DNA of 18,856 bases from Candidatus Thorarchaeota archaeon (GCA_048882485.1 JBHLRP010000058.1:1-18856); one strand, 5' to 3'; numbered from the stretch's first letter, positions 586-18,695 are shown. The notes: generated from the sequence alone by a model not told the origin. Program-made: numbers and translations.

Positions 586-594
586 AACGTGACA

Positions 595-716: not shown

Positions 717-1532
717 TTGCACACAGGTTACTGGATTCGCGGTGGGATTTCATTGAGGTTTCAATCACGAATAGACTGGAACTCTAGGAGAGTAAGGGGT
801 GGGATAGCGGCAACCACAGTGATTCTTCTTCTACTGCCAGCAATATGGTGCAGCTTCTTTTACAGGCTTTATCCTCAGGCACCTGCAATGGGACGTGCTA
901 ACGTCGAAATACTAGCAGACACCTTTGTCAGCACTGAAGATGATACTGATCACTCAAGCGAGGCAATAATCAGGATTAGCAATGCATCTGATGGAGAGAA
1001 TGAAACACTGGAAATAGCCTTCTTCGAATTCGAGTTGTATCCTCCGCCAGCGACGTCTTACCTTGCCGATTTGGTGTTTGAATTTGACTGCTCAGAGGTC
1101 CCAATGGGCGGAATCTTGAGATTTCACAAATGTGAATCAGTCACACTTGAGTCTAATGTGACATTTCACAGCAGGCCTGAGTATAATCCTGTGCCATTCA
1201 CCAACGTCACAATCACACAGAATGGCACCTACACGGTTTCACTACATGAAGAGGGTGGCTATACTGATTGGTCTGTCCAATTTGGATTGTTTGCCATAGT
1301 TGCAGATGGTGATGCCCAAATCATCATTCATTCATCGGATGCCGAGCCCAGATTTCAACCTCAGATGGAACTCTTTTCTCCACTCGGCCTCTGGATTAAC
1401 CCTGCAGAAAATCCACAACTATGTTATGTACATCCTCTTGCATGGGTTTCAGTTAGCGCCGCAATCGTACTGCTGTCCATTGGGTGCGTAAAATCATCAA
1501 AATTAGGAAGTGGCGCTGAGGGAGAGATTTGA
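717..1532 (+). CDS. Membrane-anchored extracellular protein, possibly DNRLRE/CBM96-like beta domain (true start may be TTG ~753)
   Basis: N- and C-terminal hydrophobic helices. The 'ADTFVS...IAFFEFEL...SSDAEPRFQPQMEL' pattern resembles DNRLRE domains. Five N-glycosylation sequons (NAS, NET, NVT x2, NGT). The stop codon lies inside the antisense tRNA fragment. Confidence 0.6.
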   Translation: MHTGYWIRGGISLRFQSRIDWNSRRVRGGIAATTVILLLLPAIWCSFFYRLYPQAPAMGRANVEILADTFVSTEDDTDHSSEAIIRISNASDGENETLEIAFFEFELYPPPATSYLADLVFEFDCSEVPMGGILRFHKCESVTLESNVTFHSRPEYNPVPFTNVTITQNGTYTVSLHEEGGYTDWSVQFGLFAIVADGDAQIIIHSSDAEPRFQPQMELFSPLGLWINPAENPQLCYVHPLAWVSVSAAIVLLSIGCVKSSKLGSGAEGEI

Positions 1533-1535
1533 ACT
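1505..1535 (-). repeat. att-like displaced 3' fragment of tRNA-Ser (T-loop to CCA plus 6-nt trailer), lacking the intron
   Basis: 1505-1529 is identical to 4328-4352, and 1530-1535 matches 4383-4388. Minus strand reads AGTTCAAATCTCTCCCTCAGCGCCACTTCCT. Confidence 0.9.
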
Positions 1536-1659
1536 GATTAGATATCACATCAATCTCTAAGAAGCACAGAGATTCTGATTCAAGTTGAAACGTTAATCGG
1601 ATAAGAAAAGATATACCGCCGCCAAGCTTCTATCTCCAAACAACCTGGAGGGCGGCTTT

Positions 1660-3867
1660 TTGTCAAATCTCCGATACACGACACGGGATGGCTCAACAAT
1701 AGAGGTAGCCCTAGAATCTGAAGAGATAATTTTGAAATCTAAAGATATAGTTAGTATTGACTTCTCTCAGATTAGTGAACTAGAGAATCCGATACTTGTG
1801 CATTTAGACCTATCACACAATAAAATGGAACATGTCGACTTTTCACCATTGGCTCATTGCAGGAAGTTAAGGTCCATTACAATCTCCCATAACGAACTGA
1901 CTGAAGTTAACTTAGTTCCAATTTCAGGCCTCGACATCCATAATCTGGATTTCAATCACAATCACATTGAGAAATTAGAACTATGCAATTTGCCTAGTCT
2001 TTTACAATTGAGCTTAGCCAGAAACTGGCTAGAAACAGTAGACCTTACGCCGCTCTCACATAGTCATGAATTGGAAACGCTGGATCTCTCACATAATAAC
2101 CTTGAAAGCATCAATCTCTCTCCACTTGCGAAATGCAAGAAGCTTAGAGAACTTGACCTCAGAGAAAATCAACTTCGTCTATTTGATTTTACCCCCATCA
2201 AGGCTCTATACTCTTCAAAACAGCTCAATCTCCGATTTGACTACGAAGATATGTACAAGGATGAGCACAACTTGAGCATTGAGTACAGAACTCATGCAGG
2301 TACGGAAACCATTGAGTTTCCATTCATTTGCACATCACTATGGTTAGAAGGCAAAGGGATCACCGAAATTGATCTGGATCAAATTCGAGAATTCAAGAAC
2401 ATAACTCGCATCAATTTGGAAGCAAACCATCTCGAAGAACTTGATCTGTCGATACTTGAGGAGTATCCAAATATAGAATGCCTACGGTTGGGAGAAAGCA
2501 AACTAAGCAAATTGGACTTGACTCCCCTTTCACATTGCAAATCAATAGCAATCTTAGATTTAGCGAATAATGGAATTCAAGACTTAGATTTGTCACCTCT
2601 TGCCATGTGCTCATCTCTTGAGATTCTCATTATTTCTGGAAATACTTTGCAGAGAAATATTGGACTAACACCGCTAGTCAAGTGCCAGAATCTAACTCAA
2701 TTATTTGCATCAAACTGTGGAGGGTTAGGGGAATCGTTTACGCCTTCGCTCTTCAAGGATCATGAATATCTAACCCAGTTGAACTTAAGCGGTAACGAAC
2801 TATCAGGATTTGATGCGCGTGCTCTTGGACCCAAACCCAACCTCGAAGCTCTTAGATTGGCATCTAATGCGTTTACTTCATTTGACTTCATACCACTGAG
2901 AAGTTTTGAAAGGCTCAAAGTCATTGACTTAGCCAACAATCCATTATCCAAAGTTGATTTGAGTCCTCTTTCTTCAAATACACCACTCTGTGTATTGTCG
3001 CTGCTGGATACTTGCTTGAAAAGCATTGACATTACATCACTGTATTATGTAATTGCAGGCCATTCAGCTTATTCGGATATTCGACTTCAGATAAGCAGCA
3101 ATGCAGACGAAAATGTAAAGATTGGCACAAAAGGGTTCAGCGACAGAAGGGAGATATGTTTCTTAAACGGAGAAAAGAAGCAAACGATCACCTATCCAAC
3201 AGTGTATGAAACTGAATTCGCTATCGTGATTGATGATTCAGTAAGGGTAACAATGGACAAGGCATTCAAACCGACATCTCAAACAGAAGGACGTCGTATG
3301 TCGGAATCCCTCTACGACCGTATCGATTGGATTCCAAGTAAATCGATAAATTCGATTACTGAAGATGAAGGGCTTCAGAATTTCGGAGAACTCATGCACC
3401 GAATTGGATACAACCCAACCATCACTGCATACAGCATTCTTGGGATGTATGAGATTAGTGCAATGAGAGATATTCTGATTGACATAGTCAAAGATGTCAA
3501 TCCAGAAGTAAGTGTAAATGATGGAATCATACAGCTATATGATAGGTGCGTAGATTATCTATCAAAGGAGATTGAGAATGGCAGAAGTACAATTGATTTT
3601 GACATTGAAGAACTGAAACTGACTAGTGCGGCACAGCTCGTTTCAATTATTATAGAAAACAGACGAAAAGAAGTTGAGAGTATTGAGTTTGAAGTCAAGG
3701 ATGGAGAAGTAGTGCTGGAGCCTCTGATTCAGACATTCTATGGTGGGAAGATTTTGAAAGAACTAGACATCCCCCAAAGGACGCGGATAACTAGGGAGAA
3801 TCTATACTTGATACGGGATGAATTCGACAAAGCGGGAATCAGATTGAAAATGCCAAGGGGCTGGTGA
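1660..3867 (+). CDS. Leucine-rich repeat protein (735 aa)
   Basis: Many LxxLxLxxNxLxxxDLxPL repeats of ~23-24 aa in two blocks. TTG start with GGAGG upstream (~1647). Confidence 0.92.
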   Translation: MSNLRYTTRDGSTIEVALESEEIILKSKDIVSIDFSQISELENPILVHLDLSHNKMEHVDFSPLAHCRKLRSITISHNELTEVNLVPISGLDIHNLDFNHNHIEKLELCNLPSLLQLSLARNWLETVDLTPLSHSHELETLDLSHNNLESINLSPLAKCKKLRELDLRENQLRLFDFTPIKALYSSKQLNLRFDYEDMYKDEHNLSIEYRTHAGTETIEFPFICTSLWLEGKGITEIDLDQIREFKNITRINLEANHLEELDLSILEEYPNIECLRLGESKLSKLDLTPLSHCKSIAILDLANNGIQDLDLSPLAMCSSLEILIISGNTLQRNIGLTPLVKCQNLTQLFASNCGGLGESFTPSLFKDHEYLTQLNLSGNELSGFDARALGPKPNLEALRLASNAFTSFDFIPLRSFERLKVIDLANNPLSKVDLSPLSSNTPLCVLSLLDTCLKSIDITSLYYVIAGHSAYSDIRLQISSNADENVKIGTKGFSDRREICFLNGEKKQTITYPTVYETEFAIVIDDSVRVTMDKAFKPTSQTEGRRMSESLYDRIDWIPSKSINSITEDEGLQNFGELMHRIGYNPTITAYSILGMYEISAMRDILIDIVKDVNPEVSVNDGIIQLYDRCVDYLSKEIENGRSTIDFDIEELKLTSAAQLVSIIIENRRKEVESIEFEVKDGEVVLEPLIQTFYGGKILKELDIPQRTRITRENLYLIRDEFDKAGIRLKMPRGW

Positions 3868-3873
3868 TGAAGA

Positions 3874-4236
3874 ATGCCACAGAGTATGAAGTACATTGTG
3901 AGAAACGTGACTGATTCAATCAAGACAATGTTAGACTTAGTGAAAGAAGCTGTTGACGGTGTTTGGTTTAATGCATCATGGCCTCATGAGGCCGATGATA
4001 AATGGATAGAGGGAAATGAGTACGACTATGGCCAAACCGCGGAAGGCATCAAAATTCCTCTTAAAGAGCGCCAGCTGTATCTTGAGAGAGTCGAGGAAAT
4101 GATGCTCTTTCCTCCTCATATGGATGTCTACATAGAGATCAGTCCTGTATTGGATTCGTTCTATGGTGAAATATGCATATTCTACGGTGGTCTGAAATCG
4201 AGTAAGAATTTCAAGGTGCGGCGAATCGATATTTGA
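3874..4236 (+). CDS. Hypothetical protein (120 aa)
   Basis: ATG 6 nt after the LRR stop on the same strand, plausible composition, no recognised motif. Confidence 0.55.
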   Translation: MPQSMKYIVRNVTDSIKTMLDLVKEAVDGVWFNASWPHEADDKWIEGNEYDYGQTAEGIKIPLKERQLYLERVEEMMLFPPHMDVYIEISPVLDSFYGEICIFYGGLKSSKNFKVRRIDI

Positions 4237-4333
4237 ACTCCTAAGATTATAACGAATATCCTACATTTCATGGGAGTTCGCCTTGATAATCTACCCATGA
4301 TCTATATCAAGAAAATATGACTAAAGAAGGAAG

Positions 4334-4476
4334 TGGCGCTGAGGGAGAGATTCCCAACTCTCATGGAAATCATGAGAATCTTTGAACTCTCGAGTGCATA
4401 GCACACTGGATGTTTGCAGGACTGCTAATAGCTGCCTATAGCAATCCAGCTCCATACCAGGCTTGGATACCTCAGC
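4334..4476 (-). tRNA. trnS: tRNA-Ser(GCT), encoded CCA, two introns (37/38 at 4412-4438; 59/60 at 4351-4380)
   Basis: Acceptor GCTGAGG/CCTCAGC, discriminator G, CCA. D-stem TCCA/TGGA. Anticodon stem CTGGA/TCCAG with GCT at 4442-4440. Long variable arm GTGC-TAT-GCAC. T-stem GAGAG/CTCTC with spliced loop TTCAAAT. Both introns form bulge-helix-bulge motifs. Confidence 0.95.
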
Positions 4477-4502
4477 TTATTTTCCTGCGAATCTCAGTTT
4501 TC

Positions 4503-4518
4503 TCTTAAACATTGTCGT
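4503..4518 (-). promoter_or_regulatory. BRE-TATA promoter of tRNA-Ser
   Basis: Minus strand CGACAATG-TTTAAG about 30 nt upstream of tRNA position 1. Confidence 0.7.
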
Positions 4519-4593
4519 AGTTCCTAGATTACTCAGATTGAAGGGGGCATCAGGTCTAGGTCATGGAGCATATAGCATTCGAGCATTTCTGCA

Positions 4594-5757
4594 CTAGTCT
4601 TTGCCTTTACTTTGGTTAGCAGCAGTTTGAATGTCCTCTCCAAGATAACAGGCAAGCGTAAATGAAAGAACTAGAGAGATCACTCCCAGGATCGCCAAGC
4701 TGATGGCGAACAGAGGATTAACCAAAGGGCTAGCTGTATAGTGATAAATCTCAGCGTTGAAACTGAGTTCAACATCTGAAACGACTCTCTCGAATCCAAG
4801 GCTCATTGTGGCTCCAGAGGATGTTGAAATCCTAATCCACCAATTCTCCTCCTCACTCTCGTAATGAAGAATGAATTGCTCCCAACTCCGATTAATCAAT
4901 GCGGGTTCCCCGTTCGACGATATATCAAAAAGCCGCAAATAGATGGGTGGGGGCAGAGAGGTCATAGGATCATACGTAGTTGGGCCAGTGTACACATTGG
5001 GGACCGTGATGTTTACCCACATGATCGGGTTTTCCGAGTTAAGAACTATAGAATGGGTTTCTGTCTTCAAAACCTCTTTGCGAAGTACCTCATCAAAATC
5101 TCCAACTACATAACCTGCGATGAGTGGATTGACACTAAGGGCGCCCATGAGAGTTAATGACAGTATGATGAGTGGGATGATTTCGCTTCTGAATTTTCTA
5201 CCTTTCAATTTCCTGATAACATGCACCGAATGAAGTCTAGCAGCCTTCTGAACAAACCAGCTAATACCCATTCCTGTGAAGATTGCAGCAATTACACTGA
5301 CAAGTGTGTTACCCTCGTATGTTGTTTGCTGAGGTTGAAAGGAGCTTAGATACCATAAATACAGGAACAAGCTGAAATTGACAGTATTCTGTGTTTGTCG
5401 AGTAACGGTTACATAATATGTATAGTCAGCAGCTGTTTCGAATTCGAAATCCGTATGAACATACGTGAGGTTCCGCAGTTCGAATATACTACCGGTTGCA
5501 TTATGGACCCTTAAGGAAACTGGCGATCCATTCGTAGAGATAAAACCCACATAACATCGGATTGCTTCGTGAGGCACTGTATACTGAAACTCATTGTTAG
5601 TGTCATTCAGGGTTTCTTGGAATATACGGAGATTGATATTTTCTTCTGGTGGCAAAGATGGTCTTTCTAGATTGAGCGGAACTACTACGCTCAGAGCTGC
5701 TACAAAAAGCAGCAACGTTATAATTAACGGAACAACAGATGCGCGACTCACGCGCAT
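4594..5757 (-). CDS. Multi-pass membrane protein with two extracellular domains (387 aa)
   Basis: Four hydrophobic segments arranged TM-domain-TM-TM-domain-TM, with many NxS/T sequons. No family recognised. Confidence 0.7.
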   Translation of the reverse strand: MRVSRASVVPLIITLLLFVAALSVVVPLNLERPSLPPEENINLRIFQETLNDTNNEFQYTVPHEAIRCYVGFISTNGSPVSLRVHNATGSIFELRNLTYVHTDFEFETAADYTYYVTVTRQTQNTVNFSLFLYLWYLSSFQPQQTTYEGNTLVSVIAAIFTGMGISWFVQKAARLHSVHVIRKLKGRKFRSEIIPLIILSLTLMGALSVNPLIAGYVVGDFDEVLRKEVLKTETHSIVLNSENPIMWVNITVPNVYTGPTTYDPMTSLPPPIYLRLFDISSNGEPALINRSWEQFILHYESEEENWWIRISTSSGATMSLGFERVVSDVELSFNAEIYHYTASPLVNPLFAISLAILGVISLVLSFTLACYLGEDIQTAANQSKGKD

Positions 5758-5882
5758 GTAAGACCTCTCCTAACGCAATTCTCAAACTACAACATCGAGA
5801 ATACCATCTAATTGTCACCACAGTACATATGCTTTGTTAAGAATGGACAAATGCACTAATATGAAGCATAAAATCAGTGAAG

Positions 5883-5943
5883 AGGCTTGGATACCTCAGC
5901 TTATTTTCCTGCGAATCTCAGTTTTCTCTTAAACGTTGTCGTA
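5883..5943 (-). repeat. Direct repeat of the tRNA-Ser promoter plus first 18 nt of the tRNA
   Basis: 60/61 identical to 4459-4519 (single difference, 4511 a vs 5935 g). Confidence 0.95.
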
Positions 5944-5969
5944 TCCATCAAGAAGACAAGATTAGAAGG

Positions 5970-6285
5970 TGCAGCGGCCCCTTGACCTCGAGCGTCCTTC
6001 TCCTCAGTGCTATCAATCACCTTCCTCAGAGCAGCACCCTCTGAGGCTCCACCACTCCACCTTAGAGCTGTTCCCGCCAGGGCCTGACTCGGTTCGGTAG
6101 TTTATGCCAATCACAGCAATCCTACAAATGCTGCTATGGCAGTGACAGACTTCAGAGACCACCCGTCGCCGTCCAGTGAAAGGACACGTGAGTGTCCGGG
6201 TTCGTCCTCCGTTTCGGTTACTGGTTCCAGCTATTGCCATACCGGTTACAGGTCGCGGCAAACGACCCAACCCTACCCGCTGCGG
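5970..6285 (-). ncRNA. ffs: Archaeal SRP (7S) RNA
   Basis: Helix 1 GCAGCGG/CCGCTGC. Alu domain with helix 3 GGTCG/CGACC, a UGUAA motif, helix 4, and complementary loops TTGCCG/TGGCAA. Helix 6 has a GUAG loop. Helix 8 reads GAGT-CAGG-CCC-TGGC-GGG-AACA-GCTC. Length ~315 nt. Confidence 0.9.
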
Positions 6286-6305
6286 ACGGGGCTTTAGCAG
6301 TTTTG

Positions 6306-6320
6306 CCTAAAAACGTTGTC
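6306..6320 (-). promoter_or_regulatory. Likely BRE-TATA promoter of SRP RNA
   Basis: GACAACG-TTTTTAG about 25 nt upstream of helix 1. It shares GACAACGTTT with the tRNA promoter copy at 5931-5940. Confidence 0.6.
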
Positions 6321-6328
6321 AATCGTCA

Positions 6329-8125
6329 CTAGATGAATGCCCCAGCAGCCCGCTTTATCTCAGTGACTTCCTGTAGAACTTCCTTCTCGGAGGGGAGAAG
6401 ATCATCCAAGAACTTCTTCCTCATCGCAAGAATGTGCTTTTCTGGGATGTCTGCGTAAAGAACTTCATCGTTCTTCACTTGGCGACCAATGGTAGGTCCT
6501 CTAATGGATACTGCAACCTCCATCCCGTTTGTGGCTTCATCTACAGGCACGCTGCGGTCCTGAATCTGAAGAATCGTGCCGACACGCCTACCTTCTGAGT
6601 TTATCAGGCCAGTTCTCGGTTTGATACTTCCGTAAACCCTCACACCCACGATTGCAGGGTCTTTCTGCCTAAAGACATATTCAGGAATTAGTTCGAGTTT
6701 TCCAGGTCTAATTAGAGACCCGAGCGATTCTGCTTTAGCCTGTTCTCTCTTGACAATCAACCATGCATTATAATCGTCATACAATCGATAAATGACTTCA
6801 TTCAGAAAGGTTTCAACACCATATTCCGCAGCCAAATCCTCGATATCAGGTGCGAACTTCACATTGAATCCCAATACCACGGCGTTCAGAGGCTCAGTAT
6901 CTCCTGCAGCCTTGGCTTCGACAATGTCACGTTTCACTATGTTCCCCACATCAGCCACTCTGACTGGGACATTCCGGTCCTGCAGAAACTGAGTCACAGC
7001 TTCAAGTGATCCAAGAGTATCAGTCTTGACTACTATTCCGGAGGAGTCTCTTTGAATTCGGATAGAACTGACCTCTTCCTGGACCTTCTGTTTCATGGCT
7101 TCAATGTTTTCTTTCTTGTCAACTGCATACACAGGAGCCCCCGCTACTGCTCCTTCAATGTCAGGAGAAACTATCTTGACACCTGCTGCGGCATGAACTT
7201 CTTCAACAGGCGTGAACTTTTCTTTTGGATCACGAATCTCATCAAGTTCCTTAGGCTGCAATAGTGTCCGAATCTTTGCGACAATGACATTGTCAAGCCC
7301 ACCGATGACCACAGTATCGGTCTTCCTCAGGATTCCTTCGTAAATGATTGTGTCAAGAGTAATCCCAAGACCTGTTTCTTCGCGAACTTCCAGAATAGCT
7401 CCTCGGGCGGGACCTTCAGAAATCCGCAATCGGTCCTTCATGTATTGTTGAGTGAGACCGGATAAGACCATGAGGAGTTCAGGAATTCCTGTACCGGTCT
7501 TTGCACTTGTAGGTACGATAGCTATCGTCTTTGTGAAGTCTTCAACTCTGTCGAACCTTTCCGAGTCATAACCGTTGGCTGAGAGGGCTCCAACAATCTC
7601 ATAGAGACGTCTGTCAACCTCAGATTGAGTAGTAGTACCCTGGGCCTTGATGGCCTGGAAGAGATTCATACCATCTTTTTCACGCCATCCAGGCACCTTG
7701 TCCAACTTGTTTGCTGCAACAAGAAACGGAGTCTTCCCTGATTGTAGAATCTTCAACGATTCGTAGGTCTGAGTTAGAGCCCCCTCGTTGATATCAATAA
7801 CAAGTATAGCGATATCTGCTATCGCTCCACCCCGACGTCTCAAGTTCAGATATGCCTCGTGACCGGGAGTATCAATGAACAAAAGCCCATCAATAGTCAG
7901 TTCTGTCTTTGTGCTCTCAAGAAGATCTCCACATATTGCCTCGATGGTTTCGGTTGGGAAGAACGAAGCGCCAATGTGCTGAGTTATTCCAGCAGCCTCA
8001 CGGTCCTGCACTGCAGTTCCACGCATCTTATCGAGAAGAGAGGTCTTGCCATGGTCTATGTGGCCCAACACAGTGACTATTGGAGAACGTAGTTTGGCTT
8101 CGTTACCTTTCCCGGAATCAGCCAT
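6329..8125 (-). CDS. infB: Translation initiation factor aIF5B (IF2)
   Basis: LRSPIVTVLGHIDHGKT, GITQHIGA, DTPGHE, NKLD, DTLGSLEA. Start placed at ATG 8125 (MADSG) after the SD GAGGTG. Confidence 0.97.
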   Translation of the reverse strand: MADSGKGNEAKLRSPIVTVLGHIDHGKTSLLDKMRGTAVQDREAAGITQHIGASFFPTETIEAICGDLLESTKTELTIDGLLFIDTPGHEAYLNLRRRGGAIADIAILVIDINEGALTQTYESLKILQSGKTPFLVAANKLDKVPGWREKDGMNLFQAIKAQGTTTQSEVDRRLYEIVGALSANGYDSERFDRVEDFTKTIAIVPTSAKTGTGIPELLMVLSGLTQQYMKDRLRISEGPARGAILEVREETGLGITLDTIIYEGILRKTDTVVIGGLDNVIVAKIRTLLQPKELDEIRDPKEKFTPVEEVHAAAGVKIVSPDIEGAVAGAPVYAVDKKENIEAMKQKVQEEVSSIRIQRDSSGIVVKTDTLGSLEAVTQFLQDRNVPVRVADVGNIVKRDIVEAKAAGDTEPLNAVVLGFNVKFAPDIEDLAAEYGVETFLNEVIYRLYDDYNAWLIVKREQAKAESLGSLIRPGKLELIPEYVFRQKDPAIVGVRVYGSIKPRTGLINSEGRRVGTILQIQDRSVPVDEATNGMEVAVSIRGPTIGRQVKNDEVLYADIPEKHILAMRKKFLDDLLPSEKEVLQEVTEIKRAAGAFI

Positions 8126-8169
8126 TGGTGACACCTCACAAGAAGACTTGCAGCGCGGCACGTGTTGAT

Positions 8170-9486: not shown

Positions 9487-9548
9487 TCACAATCCTAAAA
9501 TAGGTCTGTCTTTGTCGCGGCGATAAGATACAGGCAGACGTGATAGTG

Positions 9549-10214: not shown

Positions 10215-10272
10215 AGACCTTTGGTGGTACTGGTGTTCCACCTAGGTCATCCTGATTGGTTGAAAAGCCCAT

Positions 10273-10470: not shown

Positions 10471-10474
10471 TCCC

Positions 10475-10705: not shown

Positions 10706-10725
10706 CGAAAGCCATCACCTAAGAC

Positions 10726-11097: not shown

Positions 11098-11186
11098 TTT
11101 TCTACCTCTGTTCTCACTTCATTGGTATGAATAAGACTTACACATCCAATCTAGGATGCGTTCTCACCGGCCCAATCTCCAACTTC

Positions 11187-11200
11187 TTTTAAAACTGTCG
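11187..11200 (-). promoter_or_regulatory. BRE-TATA promoter of the rpl7ae operon
   Basis: CGACAG-TTTTAAAA on the minus strand, about 90 nt upstream of the ATG. Confidence 0.6.
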
Positions 11201-11214
11201 AAGTGTCATGCCGC

Positions 11215-12210
11215 TCAATAATAGTTCAAGTCTTTCAAGGCCTGAAGAATCTCCGCATCACTAGGTTCTTGATGTTGAAGGACTGAATAGCGATTTCGTC
11301 GAGTCATTATGTCCAATGCATGATAGACATTGTCAAGAAATTGGTCAGATGATATACCGAAGTCATCTAGCTTGGAGGGCATTGCATGATCAATCAAGAA
11401 CTGATGCATATTCTCTGCTTTGTAGTCGCTATAGCCTGCTTCCTCGAGGTAGCTCACACATAGTGGCATTGTAAAGGCGACCTGGAGACCATGTAAGTCA
11501 GTAGGCTCTCTATCCATTGCATGGGAAATTGCATGTTCTGTGCCGGAGCAAGGTCTTGAACTCCCAAAGATGCTCATTGCTCTGCCTGCGTCAATCTCTG
11601 CTCGGACTAGAGTTTCTAGACTCTCATCCTGTAATATTGATTCAAGTGCCGACTTGACCAGACTATAGACTCTCTTATCGAATGGCTCGTCCCTTTTCTC
11701 GTAGGCAAGGCGCCACTCACCAAGGCTGGAGGCCTTGCAGACGATGTCACCGATTCCAGCTAGCCTGAGCTTGGGAGGCGCCTTTTCAATGATTGAGAGA
11801 TCCGCAATCACGCCTATAGGGCCTTTACATTTCTCTGAGTATCTATATCCATCATGACTCACTGATGCAACATCACTGGCTATTCCATCGTGAGATGCTG
11901 CTGTTGGGACTGCTATCCAATTAAGATTGGTATCCCTCGCTAGAAGCTTAGCGGTATCTATGCTCCGCCCTCCTCCAAATCCCAGAATGACGTCTCTTCC
12001 ACTAGCCTTGGAAGTATTACCTCTCTCATATTCCGATACTAATAACCAGACAACTTCTCCACCCATGAAATCCTCAACAACTTCTCTATACTCAGCATGC
12101 AATAGTTCATCGGTCACAAAGATTGGCCGTCTGTAATCCTCCAAGAAGTCGTCGACCTTACTCAGAGCCCCTTTTCTAATCACTATGAACTGGGGATCCA
12201 CAATGGACAT
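11215..12210 (-). CDS. egsA: sn-glycerol-1-phosphate dehydrogenase
   Basis: GGGRSIDTAK, PTAASHDGIAS, SSRPCSGTEHAISHA, LHGLQVA. Confidence 0.92.
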   Translation of the reverse strand: MSIVDPQFIVIRKGALSKVDDFLEDYRRPIFVTDELLHAEYREVVEDFMGGEVVWLLVSEYERGNTSKASGRDVILGFGGGRSIDTAKLLARDTNLNWIAVPTAASHDGIASDVASVSHDGYRYSEKCKGPIGVIADLSIIEKAPPKLRLAGIGDIVCKASSLGEWRLAYEKRDEPFDKRVYSLVKSALESILQDESLETLVRAEIDAGRAMSIFGSSRPCSGTEHAISHAMDREPTDLHGLQVAFTMPLCVSYLEEAGYSDYKAENMHQFLIDHAMPSKLDDFGISSDQFLDNVYHALDIMTRRNRYSVLQHQEPSDAEILQALKDLNYY

Positions 12211-12420
12211 GTCAACAACTCCAAAGTGGTGGCTGTGCTACCCTAGTTAAGCTCTTCTGTTGGGCGCCCAATTTCAAAAACGTTTGCCCTCTCTCAGTAG
12301 CCTTAAGTATCACATCGACCCGCTCCGAGCAGCAGTCAGTGTTACCTGGGAAATACATCAGCTGATATGTTTGCTATCTAACAGCTGATGTGATGACCAT
12401 TTAATTGGGAGTCTAGAATC

Positions 12421-12918
12421 ATGACCCGATATGTCAAGGTCGCTCTCATGGGCTCTGGTTTCGCAGGCAAGTCCACCCTGATCAAGCTTCTTACTGATGG
12501 CACACAGAAGCTAAAGGTGAACTATCAACCAACAGCAGGGATGGATTGCGGAACAATCACTCTTGACAGTAATACCAAGGTTTCACTAGTCGAGATGGGT
12601 GGCCAGTCTCATTTTGAGTTCATGTGGGCAGATTTGATGAGGGGCAGTACAATGGTGGTATTGGTCACTGAAAGCAATCCTAAGGCTGTACTCAAGACCC
12701 GCCAGCTTCTCCACAAATACAAGGACAAGTTCAATGGAGCTCGCGTGATTGCCATAGCGAATAAGCAGGATGTTCCAGGGTCCATGAGGCCGGAGTCGGT
12801 AGAGGATCTGCTTGGAGTACCAACATACGGAATGGTGGCAATCGACCCCAAACAGCGTATCCATGGATACAAGCTAATTGTCAACGGTCTAAGAGACATG
12901 ATTCGTGTGGCTGCATAA
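12421..12918 (+). CDS. Ras-superfamily (Arf/Rab-like) small GTPase
   Basis: G1 GSGFAGKS, G2 YQPTAG, G3-like EMGGQ, G4 NKQD; 165 aa. Confidence 0.88.
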   Translation: MTRYVKVALMGSGFAGKSTLIKLLTDGTQKLKVNYQPTAGMDCGTITLDSNTKVSLVEMGGQSHFEFMWADLMRGSTMVVLVTESNPKAVLKTRQLLHKYKDKFNGARVIAIANKQDVPGSMRPESVEDLLGVPTYGMVAIDPKQRIHGYKLIVNGLRDMIRVAA

Positions 12919-12970
12919 TCCATTCTTAGCTTTGGGAGTGTTTCAACGCTCCTGAAAGAAAGTCCTAAGG

Positions 12971-13104
12971 TAATGCTTTTATACAGACCACCGTGTGATG
13001 AAATCGCCCAGGGCACGGGCGAGAGAGCTATTGGGCAACGCCTTGTAGCGAGTCCGTCCGGGATAATGTGTTTTGGGTGAACACCTCCACGGTCAGGTGA
13101 GCCA
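12971..13104 (+). promoter_or_regulatory. rpoD operon promoter (TTTTATA 12977-12983) and structured 5' leader
   Basis: TATA box followed by nested helices and a CACCT/AGGTG hairpin over the SD. Confidence 0.55.
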
Positions 13105-13905
13105 ATGGATATAATGATCATACACCGGCAAGATGATGCCCTTCACTTTCTTGTGGAAGGCATTGACGTTGCATTTGCAAATGCACTTCGGAGAACAATG
13201 CTTACCCGCGTGCCTGCAATGGCAATTGATGAGGTGCTTGTGCTTGAGAATACCAGTGTCATGTATGACGAGATTCTCGCTCACAGACTTGGTCTAGTAC
13301 CTCTCATCACTGATCTAGAGAGCTATAATCTCCCTCAGGATTGTGACTGTGAGGGGAAGGGATGCAGTCTATGTCAGTGCACGCTCACTCTTGAGAAGGA
13401 GTCGGGGAGCGAAGAGATAGTCGTTTACTCGGGAGACCTTGTTTCACAAGATCCCAAAGTGTTGCCCTCAAGTGGAGAAATTCCTCTTGTCAAGCTTGCA
13501 CCTAACCAGAGGCTCATTATAGAAGCGTACGCACGTCTGGGCACTGGCCTTGAGAATGCGAAGTTTCAACCAGTATCCACTGTGGCATACAAGTACGTTC
13601 CTATAGTTGAAATTGACAAGGACAAATGCACAAAGTGTGAGGCATGTGTGGAGGTCTGCCCAAAGAAGATTTTCGTAATCGATAAGGACACACTGGCTAC
13701 CCAGAACACCTTGGACTGTACCATGTGTGAGTTATGTGTTCAGGAATGCGAACCAGGGGCAATTACGATAGGGTCTAAGAACGACGCCTTTCTTTTCAAA
13801 GTCGAGTCAACCGGTGCACTTTCTCCTGAGGCAATCGTTGAGAAAGCCGCAGACACGCTGAAAAACAGAATCAGAGTATCTCTCGACTTTGTTGGTAAAT
13901 TATGA
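13105..13905 (+). CDS. rpoD: DNA-directed RNA polymerase subunit D (Rpo3) with ferredoxin-like domain
   Basis: ANALRR, NTSVMYDEILAHRLGLVP, AKFQP, VESTGAL, and two CxxCxxCxxxC motifs. Confidence 0.97.
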   Translation: MDIMIIHRQDDALHFLVEGIDVAFANALRRTMLTRVPAMAIDEVLVLENTSVMYDEILAHRLGLVPLITDLESYNLPQDCDCEGKGCSLCQCTLTLEKESGSEEIVVYSGDLVSQDPKVLPSSGEIPLVKLAPNQRLIIEAYARLGTGLENAKFQPVSTVAYKYVPIVEIDKDKCTKCEACVEVCPKKIFVIDKDTLATQNTLDCTMCELCVQECEPGAITIGSKNDAFLFKVESTGALSPEAIVEKAADTLKNRIRVSLDFVGKL

Positions 13906-13916
13906 GGTGAATACAA

Positions 13917-14279
13917 TTGGTAAAATCAGGACCAACTGACCCCAACACTCGCGCACTCATCAATGCACTGAGAAAGACATCTACCAAGCATGATGCAAAG
14001 ATATGGAAGAGGGTCGCTGAGTTGGTGTCGCGTCCCGCCAGAAAACGAGCTACAGTAAACATTGGAAAAATTGGACGCCATACACAAGCCGGTGATGTGG
14101 TAGTGGTCCCAGGAAAGGTACTGGGCTCTGGAAACCTACCCCATAAGGTGACAGTGGCAGCGTTAAACGCTTCCGCTTCTGCCCGATCAGTGATTGTTGG
14201 AGCAGGAGGATCACTAATCACTATTGACGAGCTCCTGACGAAGGTTCCAAAGGGGAAGGGAGTGACAATTATCGTTTAG
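13917..14279 (+). CDS. rpl18e: 50S ribosomal protein L18e
   Basis: VNIGKI, VVVPGKVLGSG. TTG start after the SD GAGGTGA. Confidence 0.96.
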   Translation: MVKSGPTDPNTRALINALRKTSTKHDAKIWKRVAELVSRPARKRATVNIGKIGRHTQAGDVVVVPGKVLGSGNLPHKVTVAALNASASARSVIVGAGGSLITIDELLTKVPKGKGVTIIV

Positions 14280-14288
14280 GTGGTTTCA

Positions 14289-14741
14289 ATGAGCGAGAAA
14301 GAAGTAAAGGTCTACGATGCCGAGAATATGGTCATTGGGAGATTAGCCTCGAAGGTGGCAAAGGCTGCTCTTCTTGGCAATAAAGTGGCTATAGTGAATG
14401 TTGAGAAGGCTATAATCACTGGTGACAAGTACACGGTCATTGAAGCCTACAAGGAGAAGTTCAATATTCGTACTTCCTATAATCCACGAAAAGGACCCTT
14501 CCATCATCGTCGTCCAGACAAGATGGTCCGGAGGATTATTCGAGGTATGTTACCATGGCCCACTCCTCGTGGGAAAGCGGCCTACAAGAGAATACAATGC
14601 TTCATGGGCATACCAGAGAGGTATGCGGAATCAGAGAAGATTATTCTCGAAGGCTCTAAGTACAAGAGTCTACGGCAGAAGTACATCACGGTCGAAAACC
14701 TGAGCTATGAGCTCGGATGGAGAAACCCGGAGGTCGTCTGA
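14289..14741 (+). CDS. rpl13: 50S ribosomal protein L13
   Basis: DAENMVIGRLASKVAK, RRIIRGMLP. Confidence 0.96.
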   Translation: MSEKEVKVYDAENMVIGRLASKVAKAALLGNKVAIVNVEKAIITGDKYTVIEAYKEKFNIRTSYNPRKGPFHHRRPDKMVRRIIRGMLPWPTPRGKAAYKRIQCFMGIPERYAESEKIILEGSKYKSLRQKYITVENLSYELGWRNPEVV

Positions 14742-14742
14742 A

Positions 14743-15147
14743 ATGGCAATTAGAGTAGTCGTTTCAACTGGAAAGAGGAAGACGTCCCTAGCAAAGGCGA
14801 CCATCAAGAACGGTCGTGGGCGCATCAGAATCAATGGAAGGCCTCTTGAGATACACCAGCCCGAGGTCGCAAAGATGAGAATCATGGAGCCCCTAATTCT
14901 CTTCGGCAAAGGTTGGAAGAAATATGACATAAGAGTGCGTGTTAGTGGCGGAGGTGTCATGAGTCAAGCTGATGCGGTGCGAATGTCAATTGCAACTGGT
15001 CTGTTCCGAATGAGCCAGGACTACGAGGCACGCTCTCGAATGCTGGAGCATGACAGGACCATGTTGGTCGGAGACCCCCGACGAACAGAGCCAAAGAAGT
15101 TTGGAGGGCCCTCAGCACGCTCCCGATATCAGAAGTCTTACAGGTGA
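14743..15147 (+). CDS. rps9: 30S ribosomal protein S9
   Basis: GKRKTS, GGGVMSQADA, EPKKFGGPSARSRYQKSYR. Start placed at ATG 14743. Confidence 0.97.
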   Translation: MAIRVVVSTGKRKTSLAKATIKNGRGRIRINGRPLEIHQPEVAKMRIMEPLILFGKGWKKYDIRVRVSGGGVMSQADAVRMSIATGLFRMSQDYEARSRMLEHDRTMLVGDPRRTEPKKFGGPSARSRYQKSYR

Positions 15148-15156
15148 GGCAAAATT

Positions 15157-15372
15157 ATGATAATTCCAATTCGATGTTTTACGTGTGGAAAACTAGTAGC
15201 TGACAAGTATGAGCAGTTCAAGCGCCAAGTTCGCCAAGGAGAAGACCCAGCGGCGGTCCTAGATAGCCTAGGGCTTCATAGGTATTGCTGCAGAAGAATG
15301 CTGTTGTCTCATATTGATATCATTGATAGCTTCATGGCATTCGCTACAACAGAGGTTGTGGAGGGTAAATAG
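15157..15372 (+). CDS. rpoN: DNA-directed RNA polymerase subunit N (Rpo10)
   Basis: [12 protein letters not shown]...[11 protein letters not shown]. Confidence 0.98.
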
Positions 15373-15373
15373 G

Positions 15374-15427
15374 ATGAGTGAAACAGAGATTCCTGAAGCC
15401 GAGCTCTTGACACCAATGGACAAGTAG
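15374..15427 (+). pseudogene. rps2: Truncated 5' stub of rps2 (17 codons)
   Basis: MSETEIPEAELLTPMDK* vs MSEIETSDVELLTPMDKY at 18060 (12/17 identical). Starts 1 nt after the rpoN stop. Confidence 0.88.
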
Positions 15428-15546
15428 CTCGGCAATTCATACCTGAAGAGTGCCTGTCGCAGTCAATCTGACTTGAACAGATGCGGTTTTTCTTCCTTGT
15501 ATGCACAAGAGGATTGAGAATCTCGATGGTCAATCATGACATTGAA

Positions 15547-16224
15547 TCAGCTCCGCTTATCAATCACACAAAACACGCTTGAGTTGTCAACCTCAATGAC
15601 CCTTGATTCTATGCCCATCTGCATAGTCAGGTCCTCAAACCTGCTTGGATTGAAAGTCGCAGCACGAAAACCATCCTCACAGACAATCACTCCATTACCT
15701 GTGGCTTCCCAATCTATCTTACCTATGAGTCCATAGGAGGACTGAAGTCTAAACCATTCCAGTCTATCCTCCCAGAATTTGTCAGAATAGCTTGAGAACA
15801 GGCACATACCGCCAGGACTGGTCACTCGTAGACTCTCTTTAACAAGAGTATGAGGATCTACCTTGAATGCCGAGATTCCATTTTGTATACAAACAACAAT
15901 GTCGAAGCAATTCCCTCTCAGACCTAGTGTGGCTGCATTCATTTGAAAGAGATCGCAGTTGCGCTCTGATTCCAACAGCAAATTAGCCATCCTCAGGCTC
16001 TCCAAGGATGTATCAATGCCAACAACATGTTTAGAACACGGACTCATCTGACTCAACACCCTTCCATATCCGCAACCTAGTTCCAACACAGAATGGTGTG
16101 GCTCCACATAGCTGAGGACATACTGGATCTCAGCATCTAGATATTGCTTGACTCTGGGCGGTGCAATATCGTAGCATCTCTTCAATCTCTCGGCAGAGAG
16201 TCTGGCGGAATAATACTCTTTCAT
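15547..16224 (-). CDS. Class I SAM-dependent methyltransferase
   Basis: Motif I VLELGCGYGR, VVGIDTS, FDIVVC, RVTSPGG. Confidence 0.9.
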   Translation of the reverse strand: MKEYYSARLSAERLKRCYDIAPPRVKQYLDAEIQYVLSYVEPHHSVLELGCGYGRVLSQMSPCSKHVVGIDTSLESLRMANLLLESERNCDLFQMNAATLGLRGNCFDIVVCIQNGISAFKVDPHTLVKESLRVTSPGGMCLFSSYSDKFWEDRLEWFRLQSSYGLIGKIDWEATGNGVIVCEDGFRAATFNPSRFEDLTMQMGIESRVIEVDNSSVFCVIDKRS

Positions 16225-16324
16225 CAGTGATCTGCACTACATTTCTTCTGTCTAAGTTCTACTCTCTCAATCGTTGCTTATTAGTTCAATCAGAATAACG
16301 AGGACTTTGCTTATAGTTTTGCTA

Positions 16325-16820
16325 AGTGGGCGAGAAGCTGCCCAACAAACTCCAGTGTCTTGAGGCAGTGTGTCTACGAAACACAGAGGTATGTCAGAAA
16401 CACCTACCAGTGCAACTTTCAGGTCGAAACATTGATTATCGAGGTATGTGAACGAATGCAACTAGCCGCGTGGTCGGCTTATTTCGAGAACGCTAAGGAG
16501 GAAGGCACTGCCACATGCAGACGCAATCGATTATCCTTCAGGCTGGTGCAGAGTGGACCTCTTCTGCCCCCTACCCCCACCCACCAGTAGGTGTTTACCA
16601 TACGTCTTTTCCGCGTCTGGAGTTCCCACATGGATTTGAGTATCCCCACACGACAACATCTACATCTGAGGCAAATCTGGGTCTGTCCTTGGCATAAAGA
16701 CAGGTTGAATTAAAGAACGCCACGCGGCGCCTTTCCCGAAGAAGGGTAAGGCATCGACCTGAATGACCACCCTTCCACAATCCTATTGAGAGATATGAAT
16801 GCCACTGCCTAAAACATCAT
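16325..16820 (-). ncRNA. Candidate large structured RNA of unknown class
   Basis: Four long-range helices of 8-15 bp, many local hairpins, G-U pairs favouring the minus strand, upstream TTTAAA at 16842-16847, and no credible ORF. Confidence 0.5.
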
Positions 16821-16907
16821 AATGACTACTATTGTAATCTCTTTAAACGGGCTGCCAGAGTGGTCAGGATAATGACATTCCTCACGGTGCTCTCGGAAGA
16901 ACGCCAT

Positions 16908-17795
16908 TCATACTCCACTTCTTCTTCTGTATTGCACCGCAACAGCTGCGATAACCACTACCCCAGCAAGTCCGACTACCGGTGTCACGACACCCATCAT
17001 TTCTACTTCACCAGAGTGTGAAGTACCCATCCAATTTGGATCTACCGGGACACCTCCGGTCAAATCTACAGCGATGGTCCATGCATCTCGAATAATTCCT
17101 GCACTCTCTGACACATCAAAGATGAGTTGGGCAGACCATTCAGCATCGAAATGTGTGAAGTTGACCCCAATTGTCATGACCGCTGGTCCGAGGACAAGGA
17201 ATTCATCGTTTTCGAAACACAGTGTCATGTCATCATATTGAAGCACATATCCAGCATGGGACAATTGTGACATATTGTCAATCCAAATCGGACCCACATA
17301 TTGACTCTCCTTCGAATGGATGTCCCATGCAATATCTGGATAGTCGGGATTGTTCGTGATACAATCTGGCTCTTCTTCGATTAGGTGGTCGAATAGCTTT
17401 TCCGCTCCCAAGTAAGCAAAGGAGTACTCGCGTCTCTGACCGTAACTGATTCCTCCTACTGGGACTGCATCTCCACCATTTGTCACCTGAATGAATTGCT
17501 GTTCATACCCAATGCCATATGACTCCCCCAAGTCCATGAATTCGAAACTGATCGTTGCATTTACATTGGTACCTGCGATCTCGTCATCGATGATGATGCT
17601 CACACTAGCTGCAGGTAGTAAGCTTTCTGCGCCCCTACTGACACGAAAACTGGCAGACGCCTCACGAGTAGCGTCAGTTGAGTCTGCTGCAACCCCATCT
17701 GGCAAGCAACTCCAGAGAGAACCGAATAATAATAGGGTGAATATTACCACAGCGATTTGACTTATTCTGCACCACATCTTCAAAGGTGCATGCAC
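16908..17795 (-). CDS. Secreted, C-terminally membrane-anchored acidic protein
   Basis: N-terminal signal-like helix ending in VAA-D, an acidic body, and a C-terminal TM followed by YRRRS. Confidence 0.72.
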   Translation of the reverse strand: MHAPLKMWCRISQIAVVIFTLLLFGSLWSCLPDGVAADSTDATREASASFRVSRGAESLLPAASVSIIIDDEIAGTNVNATISFEFMDLGESYGIGYEQQFIQVTNGGDAVPVGGISYGQRREYSFAYLGAEKLFDHLIEEEPDCITNNPDYPDIAWDIHSKESQYVGPIWIDNMSQLSHAGYVLQYDDMTLCFENDEFLVLGPAVMTIGVNFTHFDAEWSAQLIFDVSESAGIIRDAWTIAVDLTGGVPVDPNWMGTSHSGEVEMMGVVTPVVGLAGVVVIAAVAVQYRRRSGV

Positions 17796-17936
17796 CTCAC
17801 ATCATAATGAGCTTCATCCCTAATAGCATATCTGGCCACATCTGGATGATTGATGCAAGACTGCAAGTGCAAGACTAAAAGGTAAAAGGAGTTCTAGGAA
17901 GAAGAAGCATCCTAAGGGAAATTTCTGATGCCTTGT

Positions 17937-17951
17937 CGAAATGGTTTTAAG
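17937..17951 (+). promoter_or_regulatory. Likely BRE-TATA promoter for the intact rps2
   Basis: CGAAATGG-TTTTAAG about 110 nt upstream of the ATG, with SD GGAGG before the start. Confidence 0.5.
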
Positions 17952-18059
17952 CATCACTCAAGGGTTTCGACAAAGCTCAGTTCAATACATAGTATCATGG
18001 AGTCCATTCGATTTGATATCTGGTGACAATTCTGGCAAAAACTGTGGAGGAGCAATCGA

Positions 18060-18695
18060 ATGAGTGAAATTGAGACATCTGACGTAGAGCTGCTCACGCC
18101 TATGGACAAATATTTGGCCGCAGGATGCCATATCGGGACGCAGGTGAAGACGCAAGATATGGATTTCTTCGTGTATCGGCAGCGCCCAATCGGACTCTAC
18201 GTCCTAGATGTGAGAAAGACTGACGAGCGAATCAGAACCGCTGGCAAGTTTATCGCCCGGTTTGATTCCTCCAAGATAGTTGTGGTGTCAGGTCGTGTTT
18301 ACGGAAAGCGTCCTGTAGAAACATTTGCATATTACATTGGGGCGAATGCCTTTACTGAACGATTTGTACCAGGGACACTCACAAATCCTAATATTGCTGG
18401 TCCTAGGGTGTATGTAGAGCCTGAGCTCGTTATTCTCACTGACCCTCGTACAGACCAGCAGGCCCTATCCGAGGCGGCAAGGATTGGCGTACCAGTGATA
18501 GCACTGTGTGATACTGACAATCAGACAACCAATGTGGACCTCGTGATTCCGTCGAACAACAGAGGTCGTAAAGCACTGGCGCTGGTCTATTTCCTGCTCA
18601 CACGTCAGGTGTTGCGAGAACGCGGTGCCCTAACAGAGGAGGAGGAAACCGCATTTACAGCTGAGGACTTCGAGCCTCAGGTCCAACGGTTCTAG
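18060..18695 (+). CDS. rps2: 30S ribosomal protein S2
   Basis: YLAAGCHIGT, RFVPGTLTNP, IALCDTD, IPSNNRGRKALAL. Confidence 0.97.
   Translation: MSEIETSDVELLTPMDKYLAAGCHIGTQVKTQDMDFFVYRQRPIGLYVLDVRKTDERIRTAGKFIARFDSSKIVVVSGRVYGKRPVETFAYYIGANAFTERFVPGTLTNPNIAGPRVYVEPELVILTDPRTDQQALSEAARIGVPVIALCDTDNQTTNVDLVIPSNNRGRKALALVYFLLTRQVLRERGALTEEEETAFTAEDFEPQVQRF

Follow-up and report, generated by a model that had tools for sequence, protein, structure and literature searches.

How new genes enter the large, mosaic genomes of Asgard archaea is poorly understood, and the window analyzed here, a stretch of 18,856 nt from a Candidatus Thorarchaeota archaeon, poses the question at three places: what set packets of genes directly against the ends of a serine tRNA gene and a ribosomal protein gene? 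The sequence-only reading had placed three islets between such gene ends, regarded the two copies of each end as alleles of different origin, and proposed entry through a recombinase acting in trans or through short homology. The genome holding the window (G000) is a 157-contig MAG with 90% completeness and 5.8% contamination, which we compared with 85 or 86 family genomes, depending on the search, and with metagenome contigs (L-numbers), four of which (L122, L124, L126, and L050, the last an independent assembly) are of the same genus. The islets, termed A, B, and C, are real insertions into essential genes, and each stands between the functional end of the gene and a displaced copy of the same end. 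At each of them the stub or relic is native-like, the working end arrived with the insert, and the two copies are thus different alleles, as had been claimed; relatives have empty sites at all three, and alternative cargo was found among them as well. The tRNA-Ser locus, with islets A and B, is organized as follows:

717–1532, plus strand: native gene for a membrane-anchored 271-aa protein, its last codons overlapping the displaced tRNA-Ser 3' end
1500–1535, minus strand: displaced native tRNA-Ser 3' end (T-loop to CCA at 1511–1535, plus an 11-nt trailer)
1536–4333: islet A (GC 40.0%)
1660–3867, plus strand: islet A cargo, 735-aa leucine-rich-repeat protein
3874–4236, plus strand: islet A cargo, 120-aa protein, family unassigned
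4334–4476, minus strand: working tRNA-Ser(GCU), from reading, folding (fold z = -5.4), and alignment
4459–4519, minus strand: first 18 nt of the working tRNA-Ser with a 43-nt promoter block
4520–5882: islet B (GC 42.8%)
4594–5757, minus strand: islet B cargo, 387-aa multi-pass membrane protein without a Pfam family
5883–5943, minus strand: displaced native tRNA-Ser promoter and first 18 nt, in the ancestral place, 28 nt from the SRP RNA gene
5972–6282, minus strand: SRP RNA gene, the ancestral neighbor of tRNA-Ser (90.3 bits, E 2e-19)

The working tRNA-Ser(GCU) was read by hand, as both ARAGORN and Rfam (at the gathering threshold) gave no match in the window, having missed it because of its two introns, viz., a 27-nt one in the anticodon loop (4412–4438) and a 30-nt one in the T-loop (4351–4380). 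The alignment indicates that these introns are polymorphic among alleles, and the relic breakpoints are a few bases away from them. Both repeats reported earlier were recovered: a 30-nt one (1500–1529 and 4323–4352) spanning the tRNA 3' end, and a 61-nt one with a single SNP (4459–4519 versus 5883–5943) comprising the first 18 nt of the tRNA and 43 nt of its promoter. The site of islet A is empty in G011, L122, L124, and L126, where homologs of the 271-aa gene directly abut tRNA-Ser, and the displaced 3' copy (1511–1535) lacks the T-loop intron and matches the intron-less allele at these empty sites; the incoming part of the working gene is the T-loop intron together with the 3' end. In L122, L124, and L126 the 271-aa gene, a tRNA-Ser without the T-loop intron, and its promoter run in a row, so that both sites are empty in these three contigs. 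L122 and L126 continue towards the SRP RNA gene, each bearing an insertion of its own at the 3' end of that gene, and L124 stops shortly past the promoter. In other genera, the SRP RNA gene and tRNA-Ser are separated by ~60–80 nt in at least six genomes. Conservation of the promoter block across genera reaches position 4520, and the incoming copy at 4459–4519 matches the G015 relic copy with 100% identity. In G000, G011, and G015, which have three different cargos there, the 5' relic stops at the same position (nt 17–18, ±1 nt). Both islets have a low GC content; islet A has no nucleotide match in the 85 family genomes, and the closest homologs of islet B (71–75% nucleotide identity) are all from other genera. 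A ~600-aa gene lying between tRNA-Ser and the SRP RNA gene in relatives was considered as a mobility gene and proved to code for a CLC chloride channel; a repeat termed D3 (4606 / 9442) and an sR5 snoRNA-like match (E 0.91) appear to be fortuitous.

A layout of this kind invites an explanation in terms of decayed or trans-mobilized integrative elements, in which a tyrosine integrase, lost since or encoded on a different element, recombined a gene-end-mimicking attP with the chromosomal gene. Islet A has the classical form, an identical direct repeat of 25–30 nt that begins in the T-loop and covers the tRNA 3' end, as in the islands catalogued earlier (Williams 2002, PMC100330), and its geometry suits an integrase equally well; the near-identical 61-nt repeat of islet B is likewise compatible with a crossover. 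Because tyrosine integrases (PF00589) occur in 29/85 family genomes, one of them could have acted in trans. However, the integrase inventory suggested by the sequence-only reading detected no tyrosine, SSV-type, or serine recombinase in G000 (PF00589, PF16795, and PF00239 all without a match), a result that in a 90% complete genome falls short of proving absence. The islet ORFs gave no recombinase or nuclease match with Pfam and PHROGs, and no integrase was found on the tRNA-Ser or rps2 contigs of the relatives. An integron is likewise not indicated, given that no tyrosine recombinase was found and that the repeats are gene ends rather than attC-type structured sites. Together with the rps2 locus described below, where the geometry differs and the adjacent mobility gene is HNH-like rather than an integrase, these results make an integrase origin of the islets unlikely.

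The rps2 locus provides the most detailed record of an insertion:

15157–15372, plus strand: rpoN, directly preceding the rps2 stub
15374–15427, plus strand: displaced native rps2 5' end (17 codons and TAG), resembling the alleles of relatives
15428–18041: islet C, with the stub on its left and intact rps2 on its right
15428–17878: cargo region of islet C, its left junction 96.5% identical to the independent metagenome contig L050
15547–16224, minus strand: islet C cargo, SAM-dependent methyltransferase
16908–17795, minus strand: islet C cargo, 295-aa secreted, membrane-anchored protein
17879–17950, plus strand: relic of an HTH-HNH homing-type gene (last 23 codons and stop) at the right end of islet C
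17934–17976, plus strand: promoter-like palindromic block with a TTTTAAGC box, brought by the insert
18042–18174, plus strand: foreign tract (18-nt leader and first ~115 nt of the working rps2)
18060–18695, plus strand: intact working rps2

In all 13 same-genus genomes with an assembled junction, rpoN and rps2 are contiguous (13/13). The foreign tract is closer to another genus (80–83%) than to its own (73–78%), and its 18-nt leader mimics the end of rpoN. The stub stops at +54, but foreign sequence in the working gene extends to ~+115; the two ends do not coincide, a geometry at odds with a single reciprocal crossover, which runs against the recombinase route proposed earlier. The portion of the tract beyond the stub end looks like a co-conversion tract. 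At both loci the insert brings the promoter, for rps2 as for the tRNA, in agreement with the earlier suggestion that incoming DNA supplies the working end. The same palindromic block also precedes rps2 in G060, G084, and L090 and, in G039, an EF-1alpha-like gene.

The right end of islet C shows that the earlier statement that no islet encodes a recombinase needs qualification: no integrase is present in any islet, but islet C retains 23 codons of a nuclease-type gene, identical at 22/23 residues to the C-terminus of the HTH-HNH protein P0011. A decayed integrase had been named as a finding that would count against a novel route, and this relic answers to that description in spirit, though it is of the homing-type HTH-HNH kind and not an integrase. 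At the nucleotide level it aligns with L050 (95%) and also with G060 and G084. L050 carries the stub junction at 96.5% and the right end at 95%, but has a 390-aa copy of the gene; islet C is thus a decayed stage. The same contig disposes of the concern, voiced in the sequence-only reading, that the window is a strain assembly chimera joined at short repeats: G000 is a fragmented MAG with contamination, and repeats of 30–61 nt are near common k-mer sizes, but an independent assembly has both islet C junctions, and the chimera reading is rejected for this reason. Moreover, relic and cargo junctions of a like kind occur in G011, G015, G084, and L090, and a chimera is incapable of creating the islet-to-repeat junction sequences, leaving this explanation scarcely credible.

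The gene represented by the relic belongs to a family of proteins with five or six helix-turn-helix units followed by a C-terminal HNH-like domain that is predicted to be zinc-bound. The domain has the invariant pattern CxxC...H..KDG..H...LC..CH...H, which includes the His and two CxxC pairs, and the residue preceding the invariant His is V/I, not D/H. The Pfam HNH model (PF01844) aligned over its full length, with E-values of 0.0023–0.18 that lie below threshold, and HNH nucleases gave the best fold matches (phage T5 SciA, Z 5.3; GVE2 HNH, Z 4.6), none scoring above 5.3; a PDB sequence search with the domain was uninformative. We accordingly treat these HNH-like proteins as putative nucleases of the HNH type. 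HNH-domain matches are patchy, being present in 30/86 family genomes. An intact or truncated gene of the family lies directly upstream of rps2 in nine contexts besides the window (the rps2-linked gene contexts are G060, G072, G045, G049, G084 [truncated], L050, L051–53, and L090), and 12 of 20 sampled paralogs have a tRNA gene at most 850 nt away, some of the tRNA-adjacent ones facing its 5' end and others its 3' end. In several of its contexts this gene comes at the end of a larger element with a HerA/DUF87-type ATPase, and another protein of this element might be responsible for the insertion.

The rps2 stubs of three lineages (G000/L050, L090, and G084), with unrelated cargo, all end at codon 17/18, with the shared end sequence ATGGA(C/T)AAGT(A/G)G. 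The stubs and nearly all nuclease-free alleles have AAG as codon 17, and 5/5 nuclease-linked copies have AAA or CGN; a single nuclease-free allele, that of G010, is already AAA (n=1). Break-and-repair homing is consistent with the constant breakpoint, the change at the target codon, and the presence of a linked nuclease-type gene. These observations also bear on the proposal that no site-specific enzyme took part, and that foreign Thorarchaeota DNA entered by homologous recombination in the conserved gene with illegitimate or microhomology-based joining elsewhere, followed by selection for a working gene. The rps2 gene is indeed a mosaic, with 18175–18390 being 100% identical to the G002 allele and the left flank closest to G005, its foreign end resembles another genus, and the cargo consists of ordinary membrane and surface genes (the 387-aa and 295-aa products are membrane proteins as judged by sequence). 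However, three lineages whose cargo is unrelated have identical stub breakpoints, the tRNA-Ser 5' relics of three genomes stop no more than 1 nt from nt 17–18, and one patchy gene family is repeatedly and tightly linked to re-coded ends; recombination unaided by a dedicated enzyme is thus quite improbable.

A paralog elsewhere in G000 provides a parallel at a tRNA gene:

Contig C26, 171–1736: HTH-HNH paralog, the sole ORF of a ~1.7-kb insertion upstream of tRNA-Thr(UGU)

The insertion site is empty in G005, G002, G011, and G009. In the nuclease-linked allele the promoter is new and diverged, the 5' half is new as well, and the D-loop contains a 32-nt intron, which is not found in the four nuclease-free relatives. 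A displaced tRNA-Thr relic was looked for beside the C26 paralog, and none was found.

We propose that the islets are probably footprints of homing-type gene-end replacement rather than of integrase-mediated integration. A gene of the HTH-HNH family would adjoin the re-coded end of a conserved gene, either rps2 or one of many tRNAs, and its product would cut the unmodified allele at a fixed point (codon 17/18 in rps2). The break would be repaired from the donor copy of the element by homologous copying, introducing the nuclease gene, any passenger genes, the promoter, and the resistant replacement end, and the native end of the recipient would stay behind as a stub; the nuclease gene might later decay while the passengers persist. 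Islets A (3' end) and B (5' end and promoter) may have entered tRNA-Ser by the same route through a paralog since lost. As neither a nuclease nor an integrase was found at these two islets, the homing mechanism is extended to them by analogy: profile scans and a six-frame survey of the window recovered no HTH-HNH member or relic in either islet, profile scans found no member within 1.5–4 kb of ~45 tRNA-Ser(GCU) loci, and LAGLIDADG_3 matches near tRNA-Ser(GCU) were absent from the 86 family genomes.

The closest precedent is provided by the WHO elements at FBA1 of Torulaspora and Lachancea yeasts, in which an endonuclease gene lies beside an essential gene (Coughlan et al. 2020, PMC7282813). 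Their homing replaces the end of the gene with a resistant copy and leaves the old end as a displaced fragment; nuclease genes from earlier events degenerate, and the host gene ends up chimeric, its parts having discordant ancestry (PMC7282813). The Thorarchaeal layout appears to match this sequence of a presumed cut, repair from a donor, a replacement end that may be resistant, and a displaced old end, and shares the position of a putative nuclease gene at an essential gene, its decay, and the chimeric host gene. Close relatives have empty target sites, and displaced fragments end at a fixed point; a nuclease-type gene is present at the replaced end in rps2 and tRNA-Thr, and not at islets A and B. 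The systems differ in that the host here is archaeal and the protein combines multiple HTH units with an HNH-like domain, whereas WHO proteins are intein/LAGLIDADG-derived; furthermore, 5' ends with a supplied promoter, intron-bearing tRNA targets, and passenger genes are features of the present system, whose nuclease activity is predicted.

Among Asgard archaea, the mobile element HeimM2 of Ca. Heimdallarchaeum also lacks an integrase; it is flanked by a 16S rRNA gene and a tRNA gene and carries a leucine-rich-repeat gene and a homing-endonuclease homolog, the nuclease being proposed to direct site-specific insertion (Wu et al. 2022, PMC8813620). It thus resembles our system in its Asgard host, the absence of an integrase, and the leucine-rich-repeat gene, but its nuclease is of the rRNA-intron type, and replacement gene ends, stubs, and promoter supply are not described for it. 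The free-standing MobE and Seg endonucleases of phage T4 (PMC2790892) are comparable in having an intergenic nuclease gene at the target and co-conversion, with MobE being of the HNH type. Recombination of these phage elements takes place during co-infection, between genomes that are homologous on either side, and the elements are not known to leave a displaced gene end or to carry cargo. With the tRNA 3'-end integrase islands (Williams 2002, PMC100330), islet A shares the restored 3' end and a far partial tRNA copy. The present system differs from those islands in that no integrase was found in an islet or in the genome, a 5' end with its promoter is replaced as well, and the rps2 case is unlike a single crossover. 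In fungal mitochondria, as with atp6 of Allomyces, an endonuclease ORF arrives with the terminal part of a foreign gene and the native end is left downstream; that system is organellar, affects 3' ends only, uses another nuclease family, and has no cargo.

To our knowledge, gene-end-replacing homing has been demonstrated experimentally only in yeasts, and the present loci would add archaea to its hosts, and tRNA genes and 5' ends supplied with a promoter to its targets. A broader and more tentative proposal is that Thorarchaeota possess a general, integrase-independent means of gene acquisition through one expanding HTH-HNH family, for which the 5' and 3' ends of tRNA and ribosomal protein genes might serve as landing pads, with passengers and promoters being brought in, stacks of displaced ends left behind, and D-loop and T-loop tRNA introns seeded as target-site immunity. 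This offers a mechanistic lead on the old question of oddly placed archaeal tRNA introns, and the HTH-HNH proteins could be new long-target DNA-recognition modules. For the entry of genes into Asgard genomes, it provides a testable candidate, viz., a named family whose genes lie physically linked to essential genes with re-coded ends and to small packets of genes for surface and membrane proteins.

The window constitutes the entire 18.9-kb contig C58 of the source MAG G000 (3.96 Mb, 157 contigs, completeness 90.5%, contamination 5.8%). It contains three islets, A (1536-4333), B (4520-5882), and C (15428-18041); the sequence-only reading had described three such islets beside duplicated ends of tRNA-Ser and rps2, and these gene-end copies are where it had put them: repeat finding in the window recovers a 30-nt pair (1500-1529/4323-4352) and a 61-nt pair (4459-4519/5883-5943) with one SNP between its copies, and the rps2 stub spans 17 codons. 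The features concerned are:

1511-1535: tRNA-Ser 3' copy, T-loop to CCA, intron-less, overlapping a native 271-aa gene at its stop
4334-4476, minus strand: tRNA-Ser(GCU), interrupted by introns in the anticodon loop (27 nt) and the T-loop (30 nt)
5883-5943: tRNA-Ser 5' copy, comprising the promoter and tRNA nt 1-18, separated from the SRP RNA by 28 nt
5972-6282, minus strand: archaeal SRP RNA
15374-15427: rps2 stub of 17 codons, following rpoN
from 18060: intact rps2
G000 contig C26 (1-1950, locus L048), 171-1736, minus strand: HTH-HNH paralogue, in which five HTH units are combined with two HNH-like domains

The tRNA-Ser(GCU) gene at 4334-4476 (minus strand) is not reported by automated finders because of its two introns.

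A block upstream of the working rps2 is conserved and is also found upstream of rps2 in G060 and G084 (another genus). In G060 the block and the stop codon of a 423-aa HTH-HNH gene overlap. In the window, positions 17879-17950 specify the final 23 residues of this gene, 22 of which are identical to the protein P0011. P0011 is encoded on L050, a metagenome contig assembled independently from the same genus, which matches the window at the stub junction (96.5%) and at the right end (95%) and carries a 390-aa copy of the gene. Islet C thus contains the relic of a mobility gene; the earlier claim that the islets lack such genes stands for islets A and B, where none was found, and falls for islet C. 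Comparable arrangements are seen in G084 (rpoN, stub, other cargo over 2.9 kb, 116 residues left of the 423-aa-type gene, rps2) and on contig L090 (stub, three small ORFs, an intact HTH-HNH gene, rps2). L050 additionally holds a 1.9-kb packet (5886-7832; 174-aa and 215-aa genes) within the rps2 stub, bordered by an imperfect duplication of about 17 nt of stub sequence, resulting in two consecutive stubs. A promoter-like block at 17934-17976 (TGTCGAAA, a TTTTAAGC box, and TTTCGACA) arrived with the rps2 end; in G039 it also precedes an EF-1alpha-like gene (L042:2744-2774), and it may be a strong promoter common to translation genes.

The HTH-HNH proteins display five or six sigma-70-region-4-like HTH units followed by a C-terminal domain with the invariants CxxC, His, KDG, His, LCxxCH, and His. 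This domain gives a full-length alignment to Pfam HNH, below threshold (E 0.0023-0.18), and the best matches of a predicted model (pLDDT 81) are HNH nucleases (phage T5 SciA, Z 5.3; GVE2 HNH, Z 4.6), followed by Cas5-HNH and Cap5; hence, we term the domain HNH-like and the protein a putative nuclease. Of 86 family genomes, 30 have HNH-domain matches, at most 12 each. The subfamily typical of rps2 lies directly upstream of that gene in G060, G072, G045, and G049, and on L050, L051-53, and L090, with L087 as the sole exception. In several genomes (loci L040, L051, L087-L089), a conserved module ends with the rps2-type gene; the module also codes for ~206-aa and ~275-aa proteins, a ~900-aa HerA/DUF87-type ATPase, and sometimes a 713-aa protein, which suggests that a larger plasmid- or virus-like element uses the rps2-type gene.

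At rps2 this family behaves like a homing element. Stubs from three lineages with unrelated cargo stop at one codon, 17/18; codon 17 is altered (AAA or CGN) in all five rps2 copies adjoining an HTH-HNH gene, and is AAG in the stubs and in nearly all alleles free of a nuclease-type gene. The foreign tract of the window's rps2 extends to about +115, past the stub end at +54; after about +115, the gene matches the G002 allele at 100% identity. The sequence-only reading had envisaged small DNAs recombining in through a trans-acting recombinase or short homology; the tract fits break repair with co-conversion rather than one reciprocal crossover, and the rps2 break would have been repaired with conversion of the flanking sequence to about +115. 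The stretch with complete identity to G002 is the middle of rps2 (window 18175-18390), whereas for the left flank the nearest match is G005 (96-99%); the locus is a recent recombination mosaic.

The family also acts, as a putative nuclease, at tRNA genes of G000. A ~1.7-kb insertion just upstream of tRNA-Thr(UGU) contains the C26 paralogue and no other ORF; the site is empty, with an intron-less tRNA, in G005, G002, G011, and G009. The linked tRNA-Thr matches the relatives exactly in its 3' half; its promoter has diverged, its 5' part carries two substitutions, and its D-loop contains an intron of 32 nt. A tRNA gene lies within 850 nt of 12 of 20 sampled paralogues, against a chance expectation of about 1% (a rough estimate at one tRNA gene per 70-80 kb), with some facing the tRNA 5' end and others the 3' end.

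Which copies are original is indicated by empty sites in relatives. rpoN and rps2 are contiguous in 13 of the 13 same-genus genomes with an assembled junction, and the same-genus metagenome contigs L122, L124, and L126 present the 271-aa gene, a tRNA-Ser without the T-loop intron, and the promoter in a row; L122 and L126 extend towards the SRP RNA, each with a separate insertion at its 3' end, and in other genera only ~60-80 nt separate SRP RNA and tRNA-Ser. Therefore, the displaced relics represent the original ends at their native positions, and the inserts brought the working ones, as had been proposed. The two copies are likewise different alleles: the rps2 stub is native-like and the 1511-1535 copy lacks the T-loop intron, while the first part of the working rps2, with an 18-nt leader mimicking the rpoN end, is foreign. 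The SRP RNA 3' end (window 5944-6051) is a third landing site at the tRNA-Ser locus: its last ~50-85 nt are displaced beside the tRNA promoter in G004, G010, G007, G012, and L126 (loci L012, L013, L016, L017, L126), where a CLC chloride-channel gene or other cargo separates them from the intact SRP gene.

Alternative cargo, anticipated earlier, is found beside both the rps2 stubs and the tRNA-Ser relics. In islet A (GC 40.0%), a 735-aa LRR protein is encoded together with a 120-aa protein without a known family, and the islet has no nucleotide relative among 85 family genomes; islet B (42.8%, against 46.2% for the genome) codes for a 387-aa membrane protein with 71-75% relatives in other genera only; islet C carries genes for a SAM methyltransferase and for a 295-aa secreted protein with an anchor. 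Methyltransferase 3' ends (window 15497-15807) recur at 88-94% identity at contig ends (G000:C34:1-262, G002:C266:3149-3487), and a 92% identical copy of the 295-aa gene lies on a G007 contig (C267:1095-2078).

The origin of islets A and B is less certain than that of islet C. Neither these islets and their surroundings nor the neighborhoods of about 45 other tRNA-Ser(GCU) loci yielded an HTH-HNH member or relic, or any LAGLIDADG gene. A homing-type mechanism is favored by the tRNA-Ser 5' relic ending at or within 1 nt of nt 17-18 in G000, G011, and G015 with three different cargos, by the different promoter of the working tRNA-Ser in G011 and G015, and by the D-loop intron of G011, which lies close (a few bases) to the relic breakpoint. 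A classical integrase would account equally well for the layout of islet A, and tyrosine integrases are present in 29 of 85 family genomes; however, none was detected in G000, in line with the reading of the islets as integrase-free. The tyrosine recombinase family PF00589 went undetected in G000 and in 56 of the 85 genomes (incomplete MAGs), so the core gene set here probably does not include a XerA-type enzyme. In G011, the T-loop-intron allele abuts the 271-aa gene with no islet, which could be the product of deletion between the two 30-nt repeats. Within one genus, the tRNA-Ser(GCU) introns differ (alignment of window 4325-4530 with relatives), with none in G004, anticodon-loop and T-loop introns in G000, G003, G015, and G072, and D-loop and T-loop introns in G011; G078, from another genus, has the anticodon-loop intron only. 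These introns sit a few bases from relic breakpoints.

The scheme proposed for the islets has the logic of the yeast WHO elements at FBA1 (PMC7282813), in which a nuclease gene, a resistant replacement end, and a displaced fragment are combined with decay and stacking. Among published Asgard cases, HeimM2 of Heimdallarchaeum (PMC8813620) comes nearest. A literature search retrieved no account of the HTH-HNH family, of replacement of a 5' end plus promoter, or of the family's tie to tRNA introns. The earlier observation is confirmed and its interpretation partly supported. Homing-type gene-end replacement is the best explanation; it is likely for islet C, a tentative proposition, at slightly under even chances, for islets A and B, and somewhat more likely than not overall. 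What is new here is the relic identified in islet C and the linkage of the HTH-HNH family to its target genes.
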